From IMG/VR virus record IMGVR_UViG_3300031991_000033: 64,000 bases of DNA. One strand, written 5' to 3'. This DNA is from a virus. Every line of letters begins with the position of its first letter. The stretch's first letter is position 1. The position numbers were made by a program, and so were the translations under genes. Below are positions 5,062 through 48,638 of the stretch, piece after piece. The notes beneath the pieces are model-generated. The model did not search any database and was not told the origin of the DNA. It saw only the letters and a program-made list of their open reading frames with translations.

Positions 5062-6528
5062 ATGAATTACAATGCGAAGTTTTTGAACGAAGCTAAAGAG
5101 GTTGAGTCCAAGTGGGCACAGACCAAGCTTCTCGGCGGCATTGGTGATCGCTTTACCCGTTCGGCCACGGCTGTTCTCCTTGAGAACCAGCACCTAGCTA
5201 ACGAGCTTCTTGCAGAAGCCATGACCGACACAGGCGACATCGCTCAGTTTAAGCGTATCAGCATTCCGCTGGTTCGCCGTATCTATCCGCAGTTGATTGC
5301 GAACAAGATCGTTTCCGTGCAGCCGTTGCTCGGTCCAACCGGTCTCGTTTACTACCTGCGTTTCCGTTACAGCAGCAACAAAGGCTCTATGCGTGGTGCC
5401 GATCTTCAGGGTGGATATCCATCTGATGATTCGACCTCGTTGCAGCAGCTTGCTTCCGGTGATGGCAACTTGGATATCTTCTACACCAGCCAGTTCATTC
5501 AGAACGAAACGTCTTCGACGAATCCGGGTGGTGCTAATAGCTGGGTTTCCACTTTTGCACCGCTTGAGCACACTCCGGTTCTTCCGGGTACGCTCACCGG
5601 TACTCTGTATGACGGCACGACTGCTGTTCAGACCTTCGTGGTCAGCAGCAACGGAACCTTCACTTTCACCGACATCGGTACACCAACCATCAAGGCTATC
5701 TCCGCTGGTTCCAGCGTAGACGTTGAGACTGGTGAAGTAACGGTTCAGTGGAACTCTGGTGGTGATCCGGGTGAAAACCACATAGTATGCTCTTACGAGT
5801 ATAACATGGAATGCAACCAAGATTTGCCAGAAGTGAATCTCGTTGTCGAGTCCGAAGAAATTGCTGCTAAGACCCGTAAGCTCAAGGCTGTATGGTCTTA
5901 TGAAGCACAGCAAGACCTTCGCTCTCAGCACAACTTGGACGCTGAAGCAGAGTTGACCGCCGTGCTTGCACAGGAAATCAACTTGGAAATCGACCGTGAA
6001 GTCTTGACCGATTTGCGTAACAACGCTGGTACGGTAGCTGTTTGGGACTTCAACACCGCCTTCGGTGACACCATCAAGGAAAAGTATGAGTCCTTGTATG
6101 TTAAGGTTGTCGAAGTGTCGAACGTCGTTCACCGTAAGACCCTTCGTGGTGGTTGCAACTGGCTTGTAACCTCTCCTGAAGTGGCATCGATCTTCGAAAC
6201 CGCCACGGCTGGTTTCGCACCGGCTCCGTCTGAAACCTTTACCAGCAGCTTGGGTATCCAATACGTTGGTACGGTTAACAACAGATGGCGTCTGTACAAA
6301 GACCCACTGTTCCCACAGGGACAGATTCTTATGGGTTACAAGGGCGACTCTTACATGGATAGTGGATACTTCTACTGCCCATACGTGCCGCTCACACAGA
6401 CTCCAACGGTGCTTGACCCAGAGTCCTTCTGCCCACGTAAGGGTATCCTTACCCGATACGGCAAGAAGCTTCTCCGTGAGGGGGCAAAGTTTTATGCCCG
6501 CATGTCCATCGCCAACTTCATCGTATAA
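5062..6528 (+). CDS. major capsid protein, T4 gp23-like
   Basis: LLENQ, LVRRxxPxLIA..VQPL.GPTG, AKTRKLKAVWS.EAQQDL, EINLEIDRE, YCPYVPL and GILTRYG motifs; biased codon usage. Confidence 0.97.
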   Translation: MNYNAKFLNEAKEVESKWAQTKLLGGIGDRFTRSATAVLLENQHLANELLAEAMTDTGDIAQFKRISIPLVRRIYPQLIANKIVSVQPLLGPTGLVYYLRFRYSSNKGSMRGADLQGGYPSDDSTSLQQLASGDGNLDIFYTSQFIQNETSSTNPGGANSWVSTFAPLEHTPVLPGTLTGTLYDGTTAVQTFVVSSNGTFTFTDIGTPTIKAISAGSSVDVETGEVTVQWNSGGDPGENHIVCSYEYNMECNQDLPEVNLVVESEEIAAKTRKLKAVWSYEAQQDLRSQHNLDAEAELTAVLAQEINLEIDREVLTDLRNNAGTVAVWDFNTAFGDTIKEKYESLYVKVVEVSNVVHRKTLRGGCNWLVTSPEVASIFETATAGFAPAPSETFTSSLGIQYVGTVNNRWRLYKDPLFPQGQILMGYKGDSYMDSGYFYCPYVPLTQTPTVLDPESFCPRKGILTRYGKKLLREGAKFYARMSIANFIV

Positions 6529-7073: not shown

Positions 7074-7925
7074 ATGAAAGTATTCTACGATGGTCGACAG
7101 ACTGTTGAAAAGAATAACAGTCCTTCTCCTAGTGCCGGAAAGCCAGCACTAGCAGTAAAGTCTTGGCAAGAAAAAGTTCCAGTTGAAATCATGCCAGTCG
7201 AACCTGTTACACCGGAACAACTTGCTTTGGTGCATGATCCGAATTACGTCAAAGGTGTTCTCGAATGCACTATTGAAAACGGATTTGAAAACAAGTCCAA
7301 AGAAGTTGCAGACTCTTTACTTTGGACGAACGGAAGTTTTGTGAGTGCCGCCCGCCACGCCGCAAAATACAAAGATTGGACTGTCAGCCCAACCAGCGGG
7401 TTTCATCACGCAACGTATGCTCAAGCGATGGGTTTTTGTACCTTCAATGGTTTGGTACTTGCTGCCGTCCTTTTGAAGCAAGAGGGCTTGGTCGAGCGTG
7501 TTGGTATTGCAGACATTGATATGCATTACGGTAACGGCACCGACCATATTATTCAGACGCTCAAGCTCGACTACATCACTCACTTTACATTCGGAAGATA
7601 CAGGATGTGGGGTCAAGATTTCATCAACAAGCTTCCGGGTATCATGGATGTGTTGTTTGAACAAAACCTAGACATCCTGTTCTATCAAGCTGGTGCCGAT
7701 CCTCATGAGGATGATCCTTATGGTGGTGCTCTTACAACGGAGCAATTGAAAGAGCGTGATCGGATTGTCTTCACCAAAGCGAAAGCAAAAGGTGTTCCTG
7801 TGGTCTGGAACCTTGCTGGTGGTTATCAGCCAGACATCTCAAAAGTCCTTGAGATTCACGACAATACAGCACTAATGCACATAGAAATTTTTGAAAAGCT
7901 TGCAGGTCAAGCAGATGTTGTGTAA
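7074..7925 (+). CDS. histone deacetylase / AcuC-family Zn-dependent deacetylase
   Basis: GFHHA, GFCTFN, DIDMHYGNGT, YQAGADP..DD and LAGGY motifs. Confidence 0.93.
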   Translation: MKVFYDGRQTVEKNNSPSPSAGKPALAVKSWQEKVPVEIMPVEPVTPEQLALVHDPNYVKGVLECTIENGFENKSKEVADSLLWTNGSFVSAARHAAKYKDWTVSPTSGFHHATYAQAMGFCTFNGLVLAAVLLKQEGLVERVGIADIDMHYGNGTDHIIQTLKLDYITHFTFGRYRMWGQDFINKLPGIMDVLFEQNLDILFYQAGADPHEDDPYGGALTTEQLKERDRIVFTKAKAKGVPVVWNLAGGYQPDISKVLEIHDNTALMHIEIFEKLAGQADVV

Positions 7926-7970: not shown

Positions 7971-8786
7971 ATGCAATACGATCACATCGTCGTCGATTCC
8001 TACAATATGGCTTACCGCCAATGGTGGAATGCCAAAGACCTGATGCACAACGGCATCCACACCGGACTTGAGTTCGGATTCATCAAGAAGATCATGAGTT
8101 ACCTCAAGACAGACGGCGATAAGCTGATCTTGGCTTGGGATGGTCGTCCAACTCGATGCACTTCGCTTGTCGAAGGGTACAAGTCTGGAAGGGTCAAGGT
8201 GAACGGCGAAGAACCCGATTGGACGGTTCGTCTGACACGTTTGCGATCAATCTTTACCGAGCTTTGTCACACACTCTATGACGAAAATGAAGAAGCGGAC
8301 GAACAGATTGCAAAGTTTGTGTTGTCCAATAAGCACAAGCGAATTCTGATCGTCAGCAATGACAAAGACTTCCAACAGCTTATCTCATCTACTGTTCACG
8401 TTGAAACCAGTGGCGTTTTGATGGACGGTGCGACTTGCCAAGAAAAGTGGCAAGTTCCTCCTTATAAAATCGCCTTGTACAAAGCGTTGGATGGTGATAA
8501 GTCTGACAACATTCAGGGAGTTCCTCGTCTTTTAACCAAGACAAAGATCAAACTGGTCAACAAGGCTGAGACAATTGATGATCTTGTGTCACACTTCACG
8601 GATGCTGATCTGACCGATAAAGAACGTGAGAAGTTGGCGATCTACAAGGATCAGGTTGTCATGAACTATCAAATTGTCAACTTACTCGCCCTCGAAGGTG
8701 CTTACGACCTTTCGATTCCTACGGGGAACAAGATTCCTTTGAGAGAGATTGTTGAGGAACTCAACTTCTCAAGTATTGCTGTTTAA
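7971..8786 (+). CDS. 5'-3' exonuclease (flap endonuclease / T4 RNase H-like)
   Basis: VVDSYN, AWDG, YKSGR, EADE, SNDKDFQQL and GDKSDNIQGVP motifs. Confidence 0.9.
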   Translation: MQYDHIVVDSYNMAYRQWWNAKDLMHNGIHTGLEFGFIKKIMSYLKTDGDKLILAWDGRPTRCTSLVEGYKSGRVKVNGEEPDWTVRLTRLRSIFTELCHTLYDENEEADEQIAKFVLSNKHKRILIVSNDKDFQQLISSTVHVETSGVLMDGATCQEKWQVPPYKIALYKALDGDKSDNIQGVPRLLTKTKIKLVNKAETIDDLVSHFTDADLTDKEREKLAIYKDQVVMNYQIVNLLALEGAYDLSIPTGNKIPLREIVEELNFSSIAV

Positions 8787-9132: not shown

Positions 9133-9588
9133 ATGGAATCACAGGACACTACAAAAATGGAAATGCCCGATCTTCGCAAGATTGCGAAAGAGAGCGGCAT
9201 GGTTTCGGACATTCCCGAAGCTTTTCTTTGTGACAGTCGGAGTTGTCGCAAAGAGCAAGACACGATCTGGGCACTTTCTGGTTTCCCCACGAGCACTGAT
9301 CGAATCAATGATTTGATCAAGAAACGTGTTGATTCAGTCTACGCCAAGAAACAACGCATCAAAGAGCTTGAAAAAGAGCTTGAGATGGAAACCGTTGTTA
9401 CAGAAGATTTATTGACTGCTCTTGGCTATGACGAGATCACTTGGAAAGAAGGTGATGGTAGCAAGTATAGCAAGGGCGATCATTTGTACGCCGTGCGATA
9501 CAATGAAGATGGCGAACGTTATTCCGGTCACTATTGGGGCGGAAAGTACGAAGGTCACGCTTACACTCTGGGTCGAAATTACAACTGA
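9133..9588 (+). CDS. hypothetical protein
   Basis: AGGAGG RBS; TAGATA upstream; followed by a terminator. Confidence 0.75.
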   Translation: MESQDTTKMEMPDLRKIAKESGMVSDIPEAFLCDSRSCRKEQDTIWALSGFPTSTDRINDLIKKRVDSVYAKKQRIKELEKELEMETVVTEDLLTALGYDEITWKEGDGSKYSKGDHLYAVRYNEDGERYSGHYWGGKYEGHAYTLGRNYN

Positions 9589-9591
9589 GTT

Positions 9592-9632
9592 AAAAGACAG
9601 CATAGGTAGTAGTTGCCTATGCTGTCTTTTTG
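9592..9632 (+). terminator. rho-independent terminator
   Basis: aaaagacagcatagg...cctatgctgtctttt. Confidence 0.85.
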
Positions 9633-9700
9633 TTGTTTAAGAGCTTTGGACATTTCTTTGTGATTAGCAATCCCTAACTATTCTCAAGGGGGAGCTTAAA

Positions 9701-10153
9701 ATGTCTGAACAAACACATAATGAGGGATCGCCTTGGTTCTGGAAGATTTTTGGTGGTGCGATTGTTGGTGCCATTACGTTTTTATTGGTTGCACATATCA
9801 CCAACATTAACGCAAACATCGAACGTTCAAAATCAGAGGTAAAACTCGACGTTCGTGAACTTCGAGTGATCACAGAAGCAAACCGTGATAAGATCACGGA
9901 TTTGGAAAGATTAAGGGATCAAATCGCTGCCGTAACCGGTGATTTGAAAGAGGTTTCTGTTTCGTTCGACGAACGTAAACAGAAGATTGCCGCTCTTGAG
10001 GTTTCACTTGAACACCAAAGAACGGAGATCGAGAATATGAAGTTGTTGCATACAAAATTGACCGAGCAACTTCAAGAATTGAAAGAAAAATTGATTGTCG
10101 CCGAAACAAAAACTCCTACGGCTCCGGTTGAAGGAGAAAAGAAGAAGGAATAA
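9701..10153 (+). CDS. protein with N-terminal TM segment and coiled coil (possibly lysis-related)
   Basis: WFWKIFGGAIVGAITFLLVA TM segment then heptad repeats. Confidence 0.65.
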   Translation: MSEQTHNEGSPWFWKIFGGAIVGAITFLLVAHITNINANIERSKSEVKLDVRELRVITEANRDKITDLERLRDQIAAVTGDLKEVSVSFDERKQKIAALEVSLEHQRTEIENMKLLHTKLTEQLQELKEKLIVAETKTPTAPVEGEKKKE

Positions 10154-10156
10154 CCG

Positions 10157-10684
10157 ATGCCATCAACATTTAAGTCATTCTTAGAGAATTGGGATGATTT
10201 CTTTGACGTTGATGCTTGGCAGGCAGAGCGTGATGCACGAGGCGAGGTTGTTGACCGCCAGCCTAACTCTGAACGAGGACAATTGCGTCTTTATCACGGG
10301 TTCAATAGAGACCCACAAACTTTCAACTACGAATTTGATCCCAGCAAGTCTGAACAAGGTATGCTGTGGTTCACACACAATATGATCCGTGGATACGACC
10401 CTTACGAATACGCTTCGTCTAAGGGTCGTTTCGTTTTGACATACATTCTGGATATCGAGAAAAGGTCTGAAAAGGTAACATATCAAAACGGCAAGTCGGA
10501 ATACATTGTGCCAGAGGATATGAGGGAATTAGCAATACCTACTTCTAATAGCAGGTACATGGTGTCGTTTGATCATCTGATTGTTTTGCCAGAAGGTTGG
10601 TTCTTCACATACAAAACCGAAAAATTCATAGGCACAACACAAATCATTCACGCCAGCCCAAGTATGGTGAGCGAGGTTGGGTAA
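10157..10684 (+). CDS. hypothetical protein, possible ADP-ribosyltransferase-like fold, capsid-targeting-like N-terminus
   Basis: MPSTFKSFLE start; LRLYHG...GMLWFT pattern recalls ART strands 1-2. Confidence 0.55.
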   Translation: MPSTFKSFLENWDDFFDVDAWQAERDARGEVVDRQPNSERGQLRLYHGFNRDPQTFNYEFDPSKSEQGMLWFTHNMIRGYDPYEYASSKGRFVLTYILDIEKRSEKVTYQNGKSEYIVPEDMRELAIPTSNSRYMVSFDHLIVLPEGWFFTYKTEKFIGTTQIIHASPSMVSEVG

Positions 10685-11703
10685 TGAAAACTTTTACACA
10701 ATGGTTGGAGAACGTTCAATCATCCGTCCAAGTAGATGATCGAGAGTTTCGCAGCGAGATGCAAGAAGCTGCGAAGCAGATGATTTACTTGATGCACGAC
10801 CGTGCAGAAAAGGTTCGTGCTTTTCAACCAGAACAGTATTTACAAAAGTTGAAACAAGAGTTGTCGGGATATCCCGGTTTGAACCAACTTCTGCAAGCAC
10901 TCCAATCAAAGCAAATGCAGGCGATCTTTGATCAACAAACAAAACTCCGTGATTGGATTATGCAACAAGATTACCGGGCGACATTGCATCTACGAGACAT
11001 TTCCAGAGACATTTTTACCTACCTTGATTCATTAGATCAAAATCAAGAAGTTGATGAATCTGGTATTCAACAGCTAGTGCAACAAGCTGTTCAAGGAACT
11101 ATAGAACACATGGCTGGTATCAAAGCCATGATCGAAGAAGCTATCAGTCGTATTACAAACTGGAACGGCTCGCCCGTTACAATCAAACCCGCTTCGCATA
11201 GTAGCGAGTTTGGCGGCGGCGTTGATATTTCGCCAACTTCTAGTGCTTTGGTTTATACCGGACGTGGGGAATATGCTCCATACTTTTCATTATTCCAAGA
11301 TTTAGACGATTACGAAGGCATCGTAATTGATGATGTTCTTGAAGGTGGAGATGACGACTTTTTTCAATCTCCGCAAATGCAGGCTGACTACTTTTCTTTG
11401 ATTGGCGAGTTGCGTAACCCCGGTAGCACAAACAAAGGTAAGGTACTGACTTTGTACACCGCCAGACCGAAGAGTGATCGGGAAGATTTCATGCAACGTA
11501 GAACATTGCCAACCAATGTGTTTTTGGCGAATAACTATGATCATGTGGAAGGCTTGGCACACGATCTTTCCAGTGGTGAGCCAAGAGATGTTTGGAAGGT
11601 CAGGATTGACAGCCGGTATCTTACACAAACCCTAGATGGACCGATTAAGTATTACCAAATCACCGCTCAGAATGCACCAGTCTTGAAGTTGGAACTCCTT
11701 TAG
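10684..11703 (+). CDS. hypothetical protein with capsid-targeting-like N-terminus
   Basis: MKTFTQWLE start, coupled to the upstream stop (TAATG). Confidence 0.7.
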   Translation: MKTFTQWLENVQSSVQVDDREFRSEMQEAAKQMIYLMHDRAEKVRAFQPEQYLQKLKQELSGYPGLNQLLQALQSKQMQAIFDQQTKLRDWIMQQDYRATLHLRDISRDIFTYLDSLDQNQEVDESGIQQLVQQAVQGTIEHMAGIKAMIEEAISRITNWNGSPVTIKPASHSSEFGGGVDISPTSSALVYTGRGEYAPYFSLFQDLDDYEGIVIDDVLEGGDDDFFQSPQMQADYFSLIGELRNPGSTNKGKVLTLYTARPKSDREDFMQRRTLPTNVFLANNYDHVEGLAHDLSSGEPRDVWKVRIDSRYLTQTLDGPIKYYQITAQNAPVLKLELL

Positions 11704-11709
11704 TGTAAG

Positions 11710-12153
11710 ATGAAACTTCCAGACTTTGTAATCGAAAGGTTTCACATGTTCAATAAATGGCTTAAAAAACGAGAAGTTCCGCAAGAACCACAGCTTCCCA
11801 CGACATTTGAAGAAGCTGCACAGTTTGTCGCAGATCGCATCGAAGCTGACACGGTTCAGCAACCAATGTTTCACATGACGGGAGGAATGGCGGTACGTAA
11901 CTCTCTTGGTTTATGGGATAAAGAAAGCCCCTTGCATAAGCACATGAAGGAGAGATTCGGCTTGTGCCATGCCGACGATACAGGGAGTTTAATCACAAAT
12001 GCTGCACATGCTATCAAGAACGGTCAAGAATACGATCCGCAGGCTGACATCGAGCGTTTCAAGAAGCATTGGCTCTTTATGGGTTACGATCCTGCCACTA
12101 TGGAAAAGATCGGCGACACCCCAGACAGTTTCACAATCGTCGTCACCCGTTGA
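11710..12153 (+). CDS. conserved hypothetical protein
   Basis: GMAVRNSLGLW...HADD pattern; 147-aa ORF. Confidence 0.7.
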   Translation: MKLPDFVIERFHMFNKWLKKREVPQEPQLPTTFEEAAQFVADRIEADTVQQPMFHMTGGMAVRNSLGLWDKESPLHKHMKERFGLCHADDTGSLITNAAHAIKNGQEYDPQADIERFKKHWLFMGYDPATMEKIGDTPDSFTIVVTR

Positions 12154-12361
12154 ATTTACACGCATCAGTATCCCTCTGGTGCGTCGAATTTACCCACAGC
12201 TTATAGCAAGTCAAATTATAGAAGTTCAACCCTTACAAGGTCCAACCTCTTTAATTTACTACTTGCGACATCAATACTCAACCAATAGCGGCGGTCGTCG
12301 TGTACTCGCACATACCGTAGAAAAACCGGAAGACGTGGATTGGGTTAAGGAAGGATTCTGA
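12149..12361 (+). CDS. MCP N-terminal fragment paralog ending WVKEGF (start codon uncertain)
   Basis: 33/44 aa identical to MCP residues 63-106; ends EDVDWVKEGF*; the nearest in-frame ATGs (11999, 12008) lie inside the upstream gene. Confidence 0.75.
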   Translation, partial: VEFTRISIPLVRRIYPQLIASQIIEVQPLQGPTSLIYYLRHQYSTNSGGRRVLAHTVEKPEDVDWVKEGF

Positions 12362-12609
12362 TGACCAATCCGTTTCACCCGGAAATTGAGTTGAATATCG
12401 AAACAACTGTGATCCGTGCTCAACGCCGCAAGTTAAAAGCGACGTGGACGATGGATGTGGAGATTGTCCGACCCGATCCCGCCACCATTGAAGCTCTTAC
12501 AAGAATTGTACTCGACGAATGGAACGCTACCGTGGAAAATATGACCCAAGGTTACGTAACCATATTTGACGAAGAGTACCTTGATGAATGGGTCAAGGAG
12601 GGCTTCTGA
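12361..12609 (+). CDS. MCP mid-region fragment paralog ending WVKEGF
   Basis: PEIELNIETTVIRAQRRKLKATW vs MCP 256-278 (12/23 identical); TGATG coupling; ends DEWVKEGF*. Confidence 0.8.
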   Translation: MTNPFHPEIELNIETTVIRAQRRKLKATWTMDVEIVRPDPATIEALTRIVLDEWNATVENMTQGYVTIFDEEYLDEWVKEGF

Positions 12610-12944
12610 TGTCTTATGCCGATCCAATAGACCCTAATGAACGACCACATTACAACAACCGTGGGATAATTACGAGGTATGCCCCTAAGTTGTTGAAAGA
12701 TGCGGCGAAGTTCTATTCAAGAATAGAAATACGCAACAATCCCAACCCGCCACAGCCGAATCTCAACAACGACATATTTCCCGTCCGTGCGAATGATTTT
12801 ATAGACGCTGGCTACATCTTCACACCTTATGTGCCGTTGATGAGTACACCGCCAGTTTTAGACCCCGATTACATGTCACGTCGGGTGGAACGAGTTGAAG
12901 TTGAAAAAGCGGAAGATGTTGATTGGGTCAAGGAAGGATTCTAA
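12609..12944 (+). CDS. MCP C-terminal fragment paralog (segments swapped) ending WVKEGF
   Basis: matches MCP 460-485 (15/26) and then MCP 430-454 (14/25); ends EDVDWVKEGF*. Confidence 0.8.
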   Translation: MSYADPIDPNERPHYNNRGIITRYAPKLLKDAAKFYSRIEIRNNPNPPQPNLNNDIFPVRANDFIDAGYIFTPYVPLMSTPPVLDPDYMSRRVERVEVEKAEDVDWVKEGF

Positions 12945-12945
12945 A

Positions 12946-13209
12946 ATGTATACACAAACAGAAGAGTGGACAAGATATGGATATTTTGGACGATGTAACA
13001 CTTGTGGATGCGTTGGTGTTAGAGAGTTTACCTTTCACAAAGGTCAACAAGTTTGGTGTGATGTTTGTCGTGATGTAACAAGTAGAAAAATGGGTGTCGC
13101 CCTGCCTTACCAAAGAGAAGAATTATGTACCCATCAACCGGAAGACTCCACTATGACCTCGATACCGAAGGCTATCATCGCTTGGCTGTACAATGTGATC
13201 AAGGTCTAG
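12946..13209 (+). CDS. small Zn-ribbon protein
   Basis: CNTC...CDVC; ATG 2 nt after the upstream stop; 85-nt overlap with the next gene. Confidence 0.55.
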   Translation: MYTQTEEWTRYGYFGRCNTCGCVGVREFTFHKGQQVWCDVCRDVTSRKMGVALPYQREELCTHQPEDSTMTSIPKAIIAWLYNVIKV

Positions 13210-13529
13210 CAGATTGCTACCGCAGTCTGATCCCCAAATACTACAATGCTAAGCGTCCCCGCTATCCCGCCCATATCACTGTTGTGCGTTCGTATAAAGA
13301 GATACCGCCTAATCTTGAACCTTGGGGCAAATACCAAGGCGAGAAGATTGAGTGGTTCTACGAGCCAGTGATTCGGATGGGTACAACCTACTTTTGGCTC
13401 AACGCATTGTGTAATAGACTGGAAGATATCAGAATCGAGCTTGGGCTTCCAGTGCGTAGTGAGTATACTAGACCGCCCGAAGGATTCAGGAAATACTTTC
13501 ACATGACAATCGCCAATATGAAGGATTAA
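13125..13529 (+). CDS. 2H phosphoesterase-family protein
   Basis: two HxT motifs (AHITV, FHMTI) about 77 aa apart. Confidence 0.75.
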   Translation: MYPSTGRLHYDLDTEGYHRLAVQCDQGLADCYRSLIPKYYNAKRPRYPAHITVVRSYKEIPPNLEPWGKYQGEKIEWFYEPVIRMGTTYFWLNALCNRLEDIRIELGLPVRSEYTRPPEGFRKYFHMTIANMKD

Positions 13530-13532
13530 GTA

Positions 13533-13940
13533 ATGGATTACTGTCTAGGTTTCGTTTTCGATCCCAAAAAAGAAAACGTCTTGTTGTTAAAGAAAGCCCG
13601 TCCAGAATGGCAGGCTGGCTTATTCAATGGTGTTGGCGGAAAGATAGAGTCCGATGAGACTCCGCTCGACGCCATGATCCGTGAATTTGAGGAAGAGACC
13701 GGTTACGAGAATCTCGATTGGGGGTATTTCATCGAGATGTACGGTCACGATTGGAGAGTGTACTGCTACAAATCTCAACTACCCTTGAAAGTGTTGATTG
13801 AGATTTGTGGCAATACAAAAGACGCCGAAGAGCCATGTAAACTATTCAGTCCGCAAAACTTGAGCGGCACGATTTCAAATTTGCACTGGCTGATACCGAT
13901 GGCGTTAGACGACATCAGTTACAATTTTGAAAGGACATAA
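13533..13940 (+). CDS. NUDIX hydrolase
   Basis: GGKIESDETPLDAMIREFEEETG Nudix box. Confidence 0.92.
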   Translation: MDYCLGFVFDPKKENVLLLKKARPEWQAGLFNGVGGKIESDETPLDAMIREFEEETGYENLDWGYFIEMYGHDWRVYCYKSQLPLKVLIEICGNTKDAEEPCKLFSPQNLSGTISNLHWLIPMALDDISYNFERT

Positions 13941-14714
13941 ATGAGTGTCCAAGAATGGCTAGGGTGTGACGATCATCAACCTCACATTACCGTAAAGAGC
14001 GGTCACATTCGCAACGAGACGGTTCTCGAATTTGGCGGCGATTTCAGCAAAACCATAGAGTATACATTCAACTCTTATGGTTTTCGTTGCAAAGAATTGA
14101 GTCGTAGTGGTCTAATTTCGGTAGGGTGTAGTATTTGTTGTGGTGTTGGGGTGAGAGAAAACGAAAGGGTGTCCGCAAAACTAGCCAATCATCTAAATCT
14201 CGAAGACTATAACATAGCGTTTCCGGGGAAGAGTATTGACTATTGTTTTAGGATGCTTGATTGGGCGGTGCCGCTATTCCTTCCAAAATTTGTATTCATC
14301 CAAGCACCAGCGGATTCACGAAGAGAACACATTGATGAGTTCGGTGCTTACGATTTTGTTCCTAATGGCACACCGATTTTTGACGGCGAACGGCAACGAG
14401 TTTTCCAAGAATATCGAGACGGTTATTCCAAAATCTATAACGCACACCAAAACGCCATACACTTCTACCAAAAATGCCGAGCCATCGAACACTTGCTGGA
14501 ACGGTATAAAATTCCGTGGTTGATGCTCTTGCCAAAGAAACTCACAGAAGACGTTGCTCAGTTAATGCAAAAAAACCCTCGATACGTGAAGCTCGTAGGC
14601 TCCATTGACCTAGGGTCCGATAATGGTCATCCGGGACCAGAGTCTCATGCACTCTGGACAGAAGGTTTAATTCAGATGCTTACGAAGCATCATTTATCGA
14701 AAGGACAAATATGA
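13941..14714 (+). CDS. SGNH/GDSL-like hydrolase-fold protein
   Basis: NSYGFR, GCS, NIAFPG and D.GHPG motifs. Confidence 0.65.
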   Translation: MSVQEWLGCDDHQPHITVKSGHIRNETVLEFGGDFSKTIEYTFNSYGFRCKELSRSGLISVGCSICCGVGVRENERVSAKLANHLNLEDYNIAFPGKSIDYCFRMLDWAVPLFLPKFVFIQAPADSRREHIDEFGAYDFVPNGTPIFDGERQRVFQEYRDGYSKIYNAHQNAIHFYQKCRAIEHLLERYKIPWLMLLPKKLTEDVAQLMQKNPRYVKLVGSIDLGSDNGHPGPESHALWTEGLIQMLTKHHLSKGQI

Positions 14715-15166
14715 CAATTTCATTCCCAGCACTCGAAGAGAACGGAGAAACAAAAGCTTGGTGGCTCAACAATGGTGCCTTCTGGTTTACAGATGGCGAC
14801 TTCCAACTTGAGTTGATGCCAAGCGAATGTAACATCTTAGCTGAAGAAGGTGCCAAGCATCTTGGCTCAGAAGAACCAGTGCAAATTTGGGAAGCCAAAG
14901 ATTTGATCAGACCGGGTTTGTTTGTAACCACCGCTGATTACAAAGCGGAGATCGTGGGCGACGAGCTACACGTTGAAGAGACGGGCGGGATGAGCCGCAT
15001 GTTTGGTCAAAACATTTCCAAGAAGCACACGGTTAAATTCGACCGTTTCTTGACTCTCCTTCGGGCTTGTTACGGTGAGAAGGAGAGTCTACAAGACGGT
15101 ATGATTTCGCCACTCATGGGTGCTGTTTGTTTACAAGGCGAGAAGGATACGAAGTGCCCGGTTTAG
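14711..15166 (+). CDS. hypothetical protein
   Basis: ATGA coupling; AAAGGA RBS. Confidence 0.7.
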   Translation: MTISFPALEENGETKAWWLNNGAFWFTDGDFQLELMPSECNILAEEGAKHLGSEEPVQIWEAKDLIRPGLFVTTADYKAEIVGDELHVEETGGMSRMFGQNISKKHTVKFDRFLTLLRACYGEKESLQDGMISPLMGAVCLQGEKDTKCPV

Positions 15167-15519
15167 GCGTTCTTCCACTCTTCGCCTTCTTCATCTTCAC
15201 CTTCGACCTCAACGATCATTCCCTTGACCCAACGTCCAGACTCAAGAGAGAAGTTCTCAAGCTCTGACGTGCGGACGAAGAATTTGATCTGGGTTTCGCC
15301 GAGCGGCGTTCCCATAAGTGCATCGAAAAGGAATCCAGCCGAGCCGACAAAACAGATCGGCTCGAAGTTGGTCTCGATTACGCCGTCGTAGCTTCGAGAC
15401 TTGACCCGTTGGATCGGTCGTTTATTCTCCCACATGTCGTAGGCGTTGATGAGCAAAGCTTCACGCAACTGCTCTGTGACGGGGAGACCGCTGGTCATGA
15501 TGCAATAGATACCGTGCAT
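15163..15519 (-). CDS. hypothetical protein
   Basis: GGAGG RBS before MHGIYC; convergent stop overlap. Confidence 0.65.
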   Translation of the reverse strand: MHGIYCIMTSGLPVTEQLREALLINAYDMWENKRPIQRVKSRSYDGVIETNFEPICFVGSAGFLFDALMGTPLGETQIKFFVRTSELENFSLESGRWVKGMIVEVEGEDEEGEEWKNA

Positions 15520-25046: not shown

Positions 25047-25436
25047 ATGATTGTATTATCTGATCGCCAAAGAATCATAGTACAAGCAATCTTCGACCGT
25101 ATCGATGAAACAAGAGATCGTGAAATTGCTGAGATCGAGGAACGTAACTATGTAAGACTGGTTGAGATCAACGAGACTTGTGCTCAACGATTGGCTGAGA
25201 TAGACGCCCAAAAAGAAATTAGGCGTAAGGAACACGAAGAAAAAATGACGGCAATTCGAGCTAGATACGATGCAGAGATTGCCGCTATTGAAGATGAACA
25301 TTTTAGACGTGTTGAAGAAATAGAACTCATGCATCGTCGGCGTTTGGATATGTTGCAAACAGCCTCATTCGGTGTCGATGAGGAAAATGCCACAAACGAG
25401 TTTGACCACATAAATTGGATCAAAGAAGGGTTCTGA
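25047..25436 (+). CDS. coiled-coil protein ending WIKEGF
   Basis: GGAG RBS; charged helical repeats; ends DHINWIKEGF*. Confidence 0.75.
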   Translation: MIVLSDRQRIIVQAIFDRIDETRDREIAEIEERNYVRLVEINETCAQRLAEIDAQKEIRRKEHEEKMTAIRARYDAEIAAIEDEHFRRVEEIELMHRRRLDMLQTASFGVDEENATNEFDHINWIKEGF

Positions 25437-25792
25437 TGTTAAGTTTGGAGCAGATCATCAAATCGATCTTCGCTCACGACCAAGCTGATCGAGATCGTGA
25501 CGCTCAGTCTCAGTATTTCTCGGCAGTTGATCGGAATCCCGGTCGAGCAGTTCATCGACATCATGTTGAAGCTCAAGCTGGCGGCATCACAAGACAATCT
25601 CTTAATGATGCTTTTCGCATCATCAATCAACGCAATTATGATTGGAACGCTCATCATAATGTTCCTATGAATTTTGATCGTGAAGCTCTTGATCAAATGT
25701 TCGCACAATACGCTGATACAATCGTCACCCCATCGCCTCCCGAACCAGAAGATTCCGCCGATGAGGTAAATTGGATCAAAGAAGGATTCTGA
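25436..25792 (+). CDS. hypothetical protein ending WIKEGF
   Basis: TGATG coupling; Pro/acidic linker then DEVNWIKEGF*. Confidence 0.75.
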   Translation: MLSLEQIIKSIFAHDQADRDRDAQSQYFSAVDRNPGRAVHRHHVEAQAGGITRQSLNDAFRIINQRNYDWNAHHNVPMNFDREALDQMFAQYADTIVTPSPPEPEDSADEVNWIKEGF

Positions 25793-27961: not shown

Positions 27962-28268
27962 ATACAGTGCCCTCGACCGGATGAATATCCGCCGTGCAGT
28001 CATCCACACCAGAGATACAATCAAGAATATCATCCAAGACTGTATCGGCGACGGTGAACTTGAGGGCGTTGTCGAAGACATAGAAGAATATCTCCAATGT
28101 TCTGGTCACTACTTGAGCTATTGGAGCGACTACATCATGGATTATAACCCCGATGGGTATCTTACGATAAAACTCTTTTGGAAGGGCGATCATTGTGCTA
28201 CAATCACCTTCCGCAGCGTCACGGGCACATACGTCGAAGACGTTGATTGGGTAAAAGAAGGATTCTGA
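27954..28268 (+). CDS. protein resembling the tail-sheath C-terminal domain, ending WVKEGF
   Basis: SALDRMNIRR resembles the sheath motif SALDRINVRR; ends EDVDWVKEGF*. Confidence 0.7.
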   Translation: MREYSALDRMNIRRAVIHTRDTIKNIIQDCIGDGELEGVVEDIEEYLQCSGHYLSYWSDYIMDYNPDGYLTIKLFWKGDHCATITFRSVTGTYVEDVDWVKEGF

Positions 28269-46516: not shown

Positions 46517-47473
46517 ATGCTCAAAATTCAAGCAAAAGATTACAGTTGCCGACTATTCCTATTCGAGAGGGTAGATTGCCTTTCGATGCAGGAAGTCAAA
46601 CAGAATGTAGGTTGGGGGATTACTGCTTTTGATTTGCCAAAGGCTTGGGAATTCACCCAAGGCGAAGGCGTTGTAATTGCTGTGATTGATACGGGTTGTG
46701 ATTTAGATCATCCTGACCTAAAGGCAAACCTGATTCCGGGTTACAATTTCATTAAGCCCGGCACGCCGCCAGAAGACGATAATGGTCATGGTACGCACGT
46801 AACAGGCACTCTCGTTGCGGAAAACAACACCATTGGAATGGTTGGTGTTTGTCCAAAAGCGAAGGTCATGCCACTCAAAGCTCTTGATCAAGATGGCAAT
46901 GGCAATATGCTTAACATTGCCAAGGCGATTCGGTATGCTGCCAACAACGGTGCCGATTTTATCTCAATGTCTCTTGGGGCACCGATTCCTGTAGGCGAAG
47001 TTCGCAAGGCAATTAAGTATGCACTTGGCAAAGGTGTGATTACATTCGTAGCTGCCGGTAACGTTGGGAATACAAAAGAAGTATTCTATCCAGCCGCCTA
47101 CCCAGAAACGATTGCCGTTGGTGCTGTTGATTTGGAACTACACAGAGCGAGTTTCTCAAACACTGGTAAAAACCTAGATTTCATGGCACCGGGAGTAGAC
47201 ATCTATTCAACGGTTCCCGATGATTGGTATGCCAAGATGAGCGGCACGAGTATGGCACAACCTTTTGTGTGCGGAGTGGCTGCTTTGGTTAAGAGTTATG
47301 TCGTTGTGCATGGCAAACGACCAGATATTGAGTTAAAGACTGCGATTGATTACCGACGCTTGTTGATGGAAAACACTATTCCGGTAAACAATGGAAATTA
47401 TGACGATCCGAAATTTTATCAAGGTTTTGGTATCATCGATCCACGTAAGTTTATGGAATCAATCAAGCGTTAA
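46517..47473 (+). CDS. subtilisin-like S8 serine protease
   Basis: VIDTG, HGTHV.G, AAGN and SGTSMA catalytic motifs. Confidence 0.95.
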   Translation: MLKIQAKDYSCRLFLFERVDCLSMQEVKQNVGWGITAFDLPKAWEFTQGEGVVIAVIDTGCDLDHPDLKANLIPGYNFIKPGTPPEDDNGHGTHVTGTLVAENNTIGMVGVCPKAKVMPLKALDQDGNGNMLNIAKAIRYAANNGADFISMSLGAPIPVGEVRKAIKYALGKGVITFVAAGNVGNTKEVFYPAAYPETIAVGAVDLELHRASFSNTGKNLDFMAPGVDIYSTVPDDWYAKMSGTSMAQPFVCGVAALVKSYVVVHGKRPDIELKTAIDYRRLLMENTIPVNNGNYDDPKFYQGFGIIDPRKFMESIKR

Positions 47474-47861
47474 AATCCTTCTTTGATCCAGTCAACCTCT
47501 TCAGCCGGAAGTGTTCGTTCGAGCTTCCGGCTGGCTTTTTGTAGTGCCCAATATCTTAACCAATCGCTCTCTGGTGAGTTCTCGCCCGGTTCTCGCCCGG
47601 TTCTCGAATATGGCGTAGAATTTCTGAAAATCGATTTGGGACATCTCGCAGGCGAATGCGTCCCATTCCTTGTCTGACAGGATTTTCTGGATGTTGCACA
47701 AATTCTACAATGTCGCCGACAATCAAGTATTCTCCTTGATCATCCATGAAAGATAAAGGTCTTTTGGTTGAGTAAGACCTTTCTTCGTAGTAATCGTAGC
47801 AAGCAAAATGAATTGTTTGATCAATTATGCTGACTACTTCTCCAACAACGATGTCAGACAC
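47470..47861 (-). pseudogene. WIKEGF-tagged protein frameshifted by an 11-bp tandem duplication
   Basis: GGAGG RBS plus GTG at 47861; removing one gttctcgcccg unit gives ...REPGENSPESDWLRYWALQKASRKLERTLPAEEVDWIKEGF*. Confidence 0.75.
47578..47606. repeat. 11-bp tandem repeat (gttctcgcccg x2.6)
   Basis: read directly from the sequence. Confidence 0.95.
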
Positions 47862-48316
47862 TTGAATACCTCCAATAGATAATTCACGGTGTATTCGTAC
47901 AAGCCGGGGCACTTGGACTCTCGATTCCCAGCGACGTTCAAGATTTTGATATCGTTGTCCAGAATCCATCTTGCAACCTTCTCGTGTTCTTGGGGTGCAT
48001 GTACGCTTACATCATAGTACGGCTTTCCATACTGTTCAATAGCTTTGAGTGTACAAATTTCACCAGCACTGTAGAAATTATGGGCAAATCGGATTGTCCC
48101 GTCAGAATCTCGTGCATTGGCGTGCGTTCGAGGAACATAACTAGAAGAAGAGTGTTCTACGATTCCGTAGAGATCGGCAAGATCGGGGCGTGGTCCATCT
48201 TCAGTAAGAAAACCTTTAGGAATCCAGCCGCCAGTTTCGAGACCGAAACGCTTGGCAGCTTCCAAACCGCCTTGATCAGCACCCGTTTGAGCACCTGATA
48301 CAATCTTTGTAAGCAT
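47834..48316 (-). CDS. SLOG-superfamily (putative molybdenum-carrier-like) protein
   Basis: KIVSGAQTGAD.GGL, GGWIPKGF..EDG, N.RDSDGT and LNVAGNRES. Confidence 0.85.
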   Translation of the reverse strand: MLTKIVSGAQTGADQGGLEAAKRFGLETGGWIPKGFLTEDGPRPDLADLYGIVEHSSSSYVPRTHANARDSDGTIRFAHNFYSAGEICTLKAIEQYGKPYYDVSVHAPQEHEKVARWILDNDIKILNVAGNRESKCPGLYEYTVNYLLEVFKCLTSLLEK

Positions 48317-48317
48317 C

Positions 48318-48638
48318 TCAAAATCCTTCTTTGACCCAATCAACTTCGGAATATGCAACGCCTTGATTGGAGAGGCATTGAATGTAGTCGTTTAGACTAC
48401 CGTGATTGTCTTTTATGAAACGCAATGTTTTGGGTTCTTGGTTTTGTGAAACCACCCAAGTGAATTCATCCGACAATAGTTTAGACTCAGTGATTATCAC
48501 GCCATGAATTGCTGAGTGGTGCAATAACCGAGTTTTGATGAAACTTACGGCTTCTGAGAAAGAGTGGAAGTAGTAATCTTCAAGATGACCCATCCATTCA
48601 ATGAATCCGTAATACTTTATAGTCCTTCTTTTATCCAT
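48318..48638 (-). CDS. hypothetical protein ending WVKEGF
   Basis: ends SEVDWVKEGF*. Confidence 0.7.
   Translation of the reverse strand: MDKRRTIKYYGFIEWMGHLEDYYFHSFSEAVSFIKTRLLHHSAIHGVIITESKLLSDEFTWVVSQNQEPKTLRFIKDNHGSLNDYIQCLSNQGVAYSEVDWVKEGF

Follow-up and report, generated by a model that had tools for sequence, protein, structure and literature searches.

Tandem phage mini-genes pair fragments of the major capsid protein with a C-terminal tail found on unrelated small proteins

In a 64,000-nucleotide stretch of the IMG/VR virus record IMGVR_UViG_3300031991_000033 (hereafter, the window), we found three tandem open reading frames (ORF1 to ORF3, positions 12149 to 12944) that descended long ago from a T4-type major capsid protein (MCP) gene, were reduced to three highly conserved regions and each end in the same C-terminal tail. 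Judging by their sequences, the encoded mini-proteins might act as peptide mimics or baits with a common docking tail, a reading that we favor tentatively and rate at somewhat less than an even chance. The window belongs to a viral contig of 157.8 kb from a huge uncultured phage, estimated to be 31% complete, whose closest public relative is LR756511.1 (uncultured phage, 595 kb; MCP identity of 76%). Its T4-type head module encodes a probable portal protein, protease-like and scaffold-like products, and an MCP of 488 amino acids. This is the sole full-length MCP within the contig, and no second full-length gp23/gp24-type paralogue was found in either the contig or LR756511.1. The mini-genes lie 5.6 kb 3' of the MCP gene, within a densely packed row of co-directional genes. 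The four genes concerned are as follows.

5062 to 6528, plus strand: resident full-length T4-type MCP, 488 amino acids, parent family of the three blocks (Pfam Gp23, E = 3.5e-84).
12149 to 12361, plus strand: ORF1, 70 residues, MCP block 62-111 (N-arm, the most conserved Gp23 block) plus a 21-residue tail; 35 of 50 residues identical to MCP 62-111.
12361 to 12609, plus strand: ORF2, 82 residues, MCP block 256-311 (two beta-strands and the start of the spine helix) plus the tail; alignment score of 71 versus 30 ± 4 for shuffled sequences; its ATG overlaps the TGA of ORF1.
12609 to 12944, plus strand: ORF3, 111 residues, two permuted C-terminal MCP blocks plus an ORF1-like 21-residue tail; residues 18-43 correspond to MCP 460-485 and residues 37-87 to MCP 407-454.

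Smith-Waterman alignment to the resident MCP gave scores of 187 for ORF1 (shuffled, 28 ± 4) and of 93 and 69 for the two blocks of ORF3 (shuffled, 29 ± 4), besides the value listed for ORF2. A first-pass annotation of this DNA, made from the letters alone, had already reported matches to the MCP, and its counts were exact: 33 of 44 identical residues between ORF1 3-46 and MCP 63-106, 12 of 23 between ORF2 7-29 and MCP 256-278, 15 of 26 between ORF3 18-43 and MCP 460-485, and 14 of 25 between ORF3 63-87 and MCP 430-454. The match of ORF2 extends further, to MCP 256-311, as does the second match of ORF3, to MCP 407-454, and the two ORF3 pieces it described are both present but in permuted order, with 460-485 before 407-454. 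The comparison with a hidden Markov model of the Gp23 family (PF07068), proposed at the time as a check, bore out ORF1, which reached 45.7 bits (E = 8e-12) over a cutoff of 24.4 along profile positions 3-48 of 376 only, but ORF3 stayed under the cutoff (15.1 bits, E = 0.015) and ORF2 gave no hit to this profile. Each ORF spans at most 46 of the 376 profile positions.

Placed on an AlphaFold2 (AF2) model of the resident MCP (pLDDT of 77), the ORF1 block, which lies in the N-arm region, covers helices 59-74 and 79-83 and strand 93-103. The ORF2 block takes in strands 258-277 together with helices 280-290 and 294-320 (the spine helix), and the ORF3 blocks strands from 409 to 484. The labels N-arm and P-domain core for these elements follow the HK97 fold. 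The insertion domain (ca. 112-255) and the A domain (ca. 324-405) have no counterpart in the ORFs, leaving MCP 112-255 and 312-406 uncovered. None of the three is a complete HK97-type subunit, with N-arm, E-loop/insertion, P and A domains. Lacking the insertion and A domains, and with ORF3 permuted, the ORFs are fragments that cannot form a capsid subunit.

A diverged syntenic relative of the region was found in L022, a 7.9-kb JGI contig whose flanking proteins are 36 to 71% identical to those of the window. Its genes are orthologous, and in the same order, to window 7971-8786 (71%), 9133-9588 (36%), 9701-10153 (63%) and 10157-10684 (62%), and they are followed by one unrelated SIR2-like gene and then by five TGATG-coupled mini-genes of about 61 to 76 residues, all ending in W-M-K-E-G-F. 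Four of the five carry capsid blocks, while the fifth matches nothing. The blocks are the first half of the N-arm, a C-terminal block (z = 9.5 versus ORF3), a strand (z = 6.7 versus ORF2) and the second half of the N-arm (z = 9.5 versus ORF1), which leaves the N-arm block in two separate peptides with about 15 and 27 residues aligned. Both arrays draw on the same three MCP regions, but the order differs in L022, where it is not collinear with the MCP, and no alignment between the L022 mini-genes and the window ORFs was found outside blocks and tails. The array is, judging by this synteny, an inherited and position-stable feature that keeps only blocks and tails, which is the strongest argument against a misassembled paralogue and against plain decay. 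A single misassembled or frameshifted full-length gp23/gp24 paralogue, which the first-pass annotation had named as the outcome that would undo its proposal, is ruled out by the two missing domains, the permuted ORF3 and the scrambled order of the array in L022. SIR2-family genes stand near these mini-genes in two contigs, directly 5' of the array in L022 (L022:3999-4784) and 1.5 kb from a mini-gene in another (L013:7828-8556).

Compared with the gene of the resident MCP, the ORFs showed a proportion of synonymous differences (pS) of 0.79 to 0.85, which amounts to saturation, and a proportion of nonsynonymous differences (pN) of 0.24 to 0.42. Peptide identity to the MCP is 50 to 70% despite the saturated synonymous sites, with ORF2 as the most diverged (17 of 53 residues identical). 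In the block of 16 identical residues that had first drawn attention, 13 of the 16 codons differ from the MCP gene, as claimed. Since synonymous sites are saturated, recent duplication was rejected; neutral decay of an old copy is also unlikely, because similarity and open frames would both be gone. These values favor purifying selection on the peptides over a recently decayed duplicate. The other origin originally offered, capture from the MCP of a diverged relative, now looks less likely as a recent event: by eye, the mini-genes of the window, L022 and P0006 (a protein record) agree at several positions within the blocks at which the resident MCP has other residues. Shared residues of this kind suggest descent from one mini-gene ancestor rather than repeated fresh capture, and the comparison points to such a common ancestor for these three. 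Among ORF1-type genes from five phages and a tandem paralogue pair in contig L020, compared over 29 codons, pS was 0.62 to 1.2 and pN 0.07 to 0.27. Purifying selection together with presence in related phages holds for ORF1, and for ORF2 and ORF3 the support comes from two sources, L022 and P0005, a near-identical strain variant (a 164-amino-acid protein on an 835-bp ENA contig).

The second component of the mini-genes is the tail. As had been claimed, each of the three frames reads W-V-K-E-G-F-stop, and nine frames ending in W-x-[KRQTE]-[EDH]-G-[FL]-stop were counted in the 157.8-kb contig, all inside the window, when 0.1 would be expected from shuffles. The nine read W-x-K-E-G-[FL]-stop, mostly with [DE]-x-[DN] just before, giving a consensus of ...[DE]-x-[DN]-W-[VI]-K-E-G-F-COOH, and six of them are located on small proteins unrelated to capsids.

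12341 to 12361, plus strand: tail 1, W-V-K-E-G-F-stop (ORF1); AAGGAAGGA doubles as ribosome-binding site for ORF2.
12589 to 12609, plus strand: tail 2, W-V-K-E-G-F-stop (ORF2); AAGGAGG doubles as ribosome-binding site for ORF3.
12924 to 12944, plus strand: tail 3, W-V-K-E-G-F-stop, with TAA (ORF3).
25416 to 25436, plus strand: same tail, unrelated small protein.
25772 to 25792, plus strand: same tail, unrelated small protein.
28248 to 28268, plus strand: same tail, unrelated 106-amino-acid protein with a tagged homologue in contig L023.
47470 to 47490, minus strand: same tail, on a frame cut off from its upstream ORF.
48318 to 48338, minus strand: same tail, unrelated 106-amino-acid protein.
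48617 to 48637, minus strand: variant W-I-K-E-G-L-stop, 92-amino-acid protein.

The 21-residue tail common to ORF1 and ORF3 is identical at 46 of 63 nucleotides and 16 of 21 residues. The TGATG coupling described for the trio was seen from ORF1 to ORF2 and from ORF2 to ORF3 but not beyond, as ORF3 ends in TAA and the next ATG follows one base later, at 12946. Across 21 tails from seven loci the codons differ synonymously, and 8 of the 21 have no coupled downstream start, the next feature after some tails being an intergenic region or a gene in convergent orientation. On these codon patterns, the tail is under selection at the protein level. Because of the synonymous variation and the uncoupled tails, a Shine-Dalgarno sequence is not the reason for the motif, and a by-product of ribosome binding was rejected as its origin. 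We also searched the DNA pattern of the tail in one genome per species across 185,579 bacterial and archaeal species and found 6 cases against about 9 expected by our own calculation; among the 6, the extended consensus was seen only in L008, a 2.9-kb contig binned as Pirellulaceae. Imitation of a host protein C terminus was rejected, given that the tail occurs in bacteria and archaea at chance rate only.

Among viruses, the tail is also present in the unrelated viral contigs L004 and L005 (one ORF in L005) and in many metagenome contigs. As L004 is a small unrelated phage, the tail is not limited to huge phages. In this contig (IMG/VR, 28.9 kb, high GC), the ORFs 1572-1730 (52 amino acids) and 2183-2356 (57 amino acids) end in D-W-[IV]-K-E-G-F and flank a small-terminase-like gene just 5' of the large terminase. 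A different setting is that of L031:1-12724 (MDTG01031237.1, 120 kb), with more than 20 tandem paralogues of about 150 to 175 residues, nearly all ending in W-[QE]-[QK]-E-G-F-stop, and repeat proteins that look MORN-like by eye bear the same tail at L022:1-401 (plus strand) and in L049 (tag at 7537, plus strand). When compared with the genes of the 157.8-kb contig, which represents about 31% of the genome, neither the window's remaining tagged proteins nor the tagged mini-proteins of metagenome loci showed a fragment relation to another gene. That unrelated small proteins share the tail implies a single putative reader.

The ORF1 type forms a family across many phages, which we collected by a word-indexed search and an exhaustive profile search (2637 profile hits at E ≤ 1e-3). 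Many short proteins among the hits consist of the capsid block, then a basic linker and then a tail, which is the orthologous fragment-plus-tag arrangement that the first-pass annotation had suggested looking for. At least 25 members end in [DN]-W-x-[KTRQ]-E-G-F (tag A), and about 13 have a second tail (tag B) with a lysine run and W-R-[SD]-I-[TD]-E, often followed by P-W-E. In a MAFFT alignment the two tails align on W and E-[GP]-[FW], and they may be related. Some members have N-terminal additions, namely a membrane helix (P0044, P0049 and P0052), a confidently folding domain of about 80 residues, or the MCP propeptide region, and in P0034 a piece of the spine helix is added at the N terminus. 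The ca. 80-residue domain had no Pfam hit, no useful Atlas hit and no fold match in the PDB. In the AF2 model of a member with this extra domain, the domain was confident and the capsid block and tail were of low confidence, which fits a linear-peptide bait.

Several members are found on contigs of 120 to 477 kb, amid small hypothetical genes and remote from the head module. In L012, a 477-kb JGI contig, a run of four small tagged ORFs, of which three are zinc-ribbon-like, precedes the tagged capsid mini-gene by about 1 kb. Other small proteins share the second tail type in L019 and L020, and L020 has two tandem capsid mini-genes. At L019:9992-12095 and L020:5468-10386, where capsid mini-genes and other small proteins end in a basic run followed by W-R-S-I-[TD]-[DE], these mini-genes have a conserved neighborhood of translation genes (among them methionyl-tRNA synthetase, PTH2 and release factor). 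Capsid pieces were also seen in other contexts. At L012:1248-2276 (minus strand) there is a 342-amino-acid nucleotidyltransferase-like protein with an N-terminal cytidylyltransferase-like domain, and a stretch of 37 residues between its domains is 70% identical to MCP 359-395 (E = 1e-12), which on this match is a piece of the capsid A domain embedded in an enzyme-like protein. LR756511.1 has a 99-amino-acid ORF with a Cys-x-x-Cys zinc-ribbon-like N terminus joined to MCP 430-474 (56%; L015:1515-1814) and a 168-amino-acid ORF matching MCP 319-439 (31%; L016:1454-1960). Owing to the L012 and LR756511.1 cases, the reuse of capsid pieces is wider than this one tail type. Taken at the level of sequence, the mini-genes belong to a wider class in huge phages, in which a conserved block of an essential phage protein is combined with a lineage-specific C-terminal tail.

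In the mechanism that we tentatively propose, each mini-protein would be soluble and for the most part unfolded, would imitate a single linear stretch of the capsid protein in its unassembled state and would occupy the factor that normally binds this stretch. Candidate factors are a host capsid sensor (of the Lit/EF-Tu or the CapRel type), EF-Tu itself, a chaperone or a neighboring capsid subunit. Through the tail that they have in common, the mimic and the other tagged proteins alike would be docked on one shared partner. Action as a linear mimic is suggested because the blocks are peptide sized, can be split, permuted and reordered, and are predicted to be disordered alone.

Several observations weigh against peptide mimicry. 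A sensor bound by a bait should be set off rather than blocked, unless the binding is unproductive. The W-x-K-E-G-F tail is absent from LR756511.1, the nearest public genome. For ORF2, no homologue was found among 5.8 billion proteins, and for ORF3 only P0005 was recovered; searches for homologues of both in viral contigs and JGI metagenome contigs gave nothing useful, and their known relatives are P0005 and L022 only. In P0005 itself, short stretches have twice been duplicated in tandem, two deletions have occurred and the frame has changed, so that ORF2 is fused to the second half of ORF3 and the tail of ORF2 is lost, while the frame is still open through to a tail. Because of the missing homologues and this rearrangement, ORF2 and ORF3 at least may be under weak constraint.

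The start of ORF1 is a further difficulty. Its beginning had been placed at 12149, where the codon is GTT and not a start codon, and the only ATGs in frame are those at 11999 and 12008. The features involved are the following.

11710 to 12153, plus strand: upstream gene, 147 amino acids, DUF6794 (Pfam PF20594, E = 2e-6 on residues 53-100); stop codon at 12151-12153.
11999 to 12148, plus strand: open stretch in frame with and 5' of ORF1, holding its only ATGs; runs across the 3' end of the DUF6794 gene, which uses a different frame.
12104 to 12122, plus strand: homopolymer runs A4 (12104-12107) and C4 (12119-12122), read from the sequence.

The two ATGs, the first with GGGAG 11 nucleotides before it, lie 140 to 150 nucleotides upstream, inside the DUF6794 gene, whose own frame looks coding and whose final 5 bases overlap the beginning assigned to ORF1. 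No ATG, GTG or TTG occurs in the ORF1 frame between 12008 and 12149, and ORF1 was not called by the gene caller behind the protein database (the search gave no self hit). By tblastn, the ORF1 frame is homologous from about 12110 onward to the mini-gene that comes first in L022. The loss of one base in A4 or C4 would fuse the DUF6794 frame to ORF1, and with one A fewer, the distance from ATG 12100 to the block equals that from start to block in the L022 orthologue. The missing start codon may reflect an error in sequencing, or the gene may encode a fusion protein or be broken. At 47470-47969 (minus strand), a frame ending in the tail likewise has no start, and the ORFs upstream of it are in the other two frames; as read here, this is a second tagged gene of the window with a broken or shifted frame.

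Instead of mimicking the capsid to a third party, the mini-proteins might resemble microProteins and be dominant-negative modulators of assembly. The free pieces would bind unassembled MCP, scaffold or chaperonin and either curb premature polymerization of the phage's own capsid or poison that of a coinfecting relative, with the tail setting location or lifetime. We consider this somewhat unlikely. The blocks do correspond to N-arm, spine-helix and C-terminal-strand elements of the MCP model, and a membrane helix precedes the block in the three members mentioned above. T4 proheads assemble at the membrane, and satellites are known to use capsid-protein homologues against the assembly of their helper (Ccm of SaPIbov5). 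In the T4 capsid, the N-arms contact neighboring subunits extensively after expansion (PMC9958956). However, the N-arm block is near-identical across the clade, so that a poison would strike its own capsid too; the two N-arm halves encoded in L022 are short peptides for a role in structural complementation; and the same tail is present on proteins unrelated to capsids.

The tail might also serve for disposal. Huge phages would then keep libraries of tagged peptide copies of conserved stretches of their own essential proteins as a form of counter-immunity, each copy capturing a host factor that the tail hands over to a shared effector such as a protease. We regard this as unlikely; if true, the baits would reveal the viral epitopes that are read by bacterial immunity.

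A more restricted possibility centers on EF-Tu. The Gol region of T4 gp23, a 29-residue segment in the first quarter of the protein and its most conserved part, binds domains II and III of EF-Tu and licenses the Lit protease (PMC3014915). ORF1 aligns with T4 gp23 from about residue 93, along a stretch that holds all invariant columns of the family (V99, R100, R101, P104, I107, A108, Q115 and P116), and we take its block to be the Gol region, presuming that Gol comprises residues 93 to 122. ORF1-type proteins could then be Gol peptides in free form that influence translation by binding the EF-Tu of the host, either recruiting or modulating it or shielding it from a Lit-type protease, with ORF2 and ORF3 as lineage-specific extras. 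In one phage lineage the mini-gene does lie amid the translation genes noted above, with PTH2 directly downstream. However, the three loci with such neighbors belong to related phages and count as one observation, while the tag A loci (the window, L012, L013, L017 and L022) have no translation genes nearby. Free Gol peptides do not account for ORF2, ORF3 or the two N-arm halves of L022, EF-Tu is very abundant and difficult to titrate, and the Gol coordinates are presumed ones. On balance this is quite unlikely. A cofold of the ORF1 family alignment with Escherichia coli EF-Tu 200-394, run without controls, scored 0.00, and we counted it neither way.

It is improbable, in our view, that the trio is merely the decaying debris of an ancient capsid gene copy in this genome, even if the family is perhaps functional elsewhere. 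The missing start codon of ORF1, the divergence of ORF2, the rearrangements of P0005 and the restriction of ORF2 and ORF3 relatives to P0005 and L022 would all fit debris. Against it, the three frames are open and tightly coupled, each with an intact tail, and with synonymous sites saturated neutral decay would have erased the similarity and added stops; the syntenic array of L022 retains the same blocks and tails, and even P0005 retains one open frame up to a tail. Highly improbable is a cis-acting tail, that is, a cassette working through the nascent chain or as a ribosome-binding site, which would couple translation or stall it where genes end and would carry the capsid blocks as passengers: known arrest peptides do act via their last 10 to 20 residues, and before ORF2 and ORF3 the K-E-G codons read AAGGAGG or AAGGAAGGA, correctly spaced from the next ATG, but most copies read AAAGAAGGA, a weak site, the uncoupled tails have no start to serve, and a ribosome-binding site leaves the conserved W, [VI], [DN] and F unexplained.

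Returning to the peptide mimics, their nearest known parallel is the Gol/e14 Lit/EF-Tu system (PMC3014915), in which a short linear stretch of a T4-type capsid protein is itself the ligand, presumably the stretch with which ORF1 aligns. Gol, however, is part of full-length gp23 and not a separate gene, has no C-terminal tail, and is a different region from those in ORF2 and ORF3. With gp23/gp24 (PF07068, HK97 fold) the likeness is one of descent, ORF1 being over the family threshold and ORF2 and ORF3 matching the resident MCP, whereas the ORFs have 70 to 111 residues, lack the insertion and A domains and include the permuted ORF3. Eukaryotic microProteins and laboratory-made dominant-negative fragments are also small proteins made from one interaction module of a larger one and are thought to act by occupying the partners of their parent; here, in contrast, the setting is a phage, the blocks are peptides rather than folded domains, and the tail is shared with unrelated proteins. 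One short terminal peptide on otherwise unrelated proteins recalls the capsid-targeting sequence on T4 internal proteins, ssrA degrons and PDZ ligands, but the T4 signal is N-terminal and cleaved, while this tail is C-terminal with a Phe-COOH end, and it matches no described motif. In its proposed role, the design is like DSAD1 versus DSR2, a phage answer to host sensors of conserved virion proteins; to our knowledge, phage inhibitors such as DSAD1 are not fragments of the sensed protein. None of these systems joins a fragment of the phage's own core protein to a shared C-terminal tail, and a literature search on capsid decoys, capsid fragments, huge-phage C-terminal motifs and the tail motif itself found no description of the motif or of a tagged-fragment design.

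If they are mimics, the mini-proteins mark the parts of virion proteins that are read by some cellular factor, and bacterial sensing of conserved phage structural proteins, together with its evasion by phages, would become directly testable. The single reader of the tail, once found, could explain a large share of the small unassigned genes of huge phages. The ORF1 type would be a natural stand-alone version of the T4 Gol region and could settle whether the contact between MCP and EF-Tu is general in T4-type phages. The family is large, under selection and unannotated, with databases mislabeling its members as capsid fragments.

As for the gene row itself, a strong terminator at 9592-9630 lies upstream of the genes that contain ORF1 to ORF3, and the operon probably starts there; apart from it, a promoter and terminator scan of 9500-15500 stayed within shuffled expectation. 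Among 50,697 phage records, a distant DNA search with this region turned up nothing that matched. Right after ORF3, at 12946-13209, there is a gene for an 87-amino-acid, zinc-ribbon-like protein with two Cys-x-x-Cys pairs and no tail, whose 3' end overlaps the ORF at 13125-13529 by 85 nucleotides. Beyond the window, at the end of the contig (157502-157789), a 340-codon frame matches the insertion domain of the MCP (MCP 117-214, 41%, E = 5e-21), and LR756511.1 has three similar matches; these are probably an Ig-like domain shared with other virion proteins.

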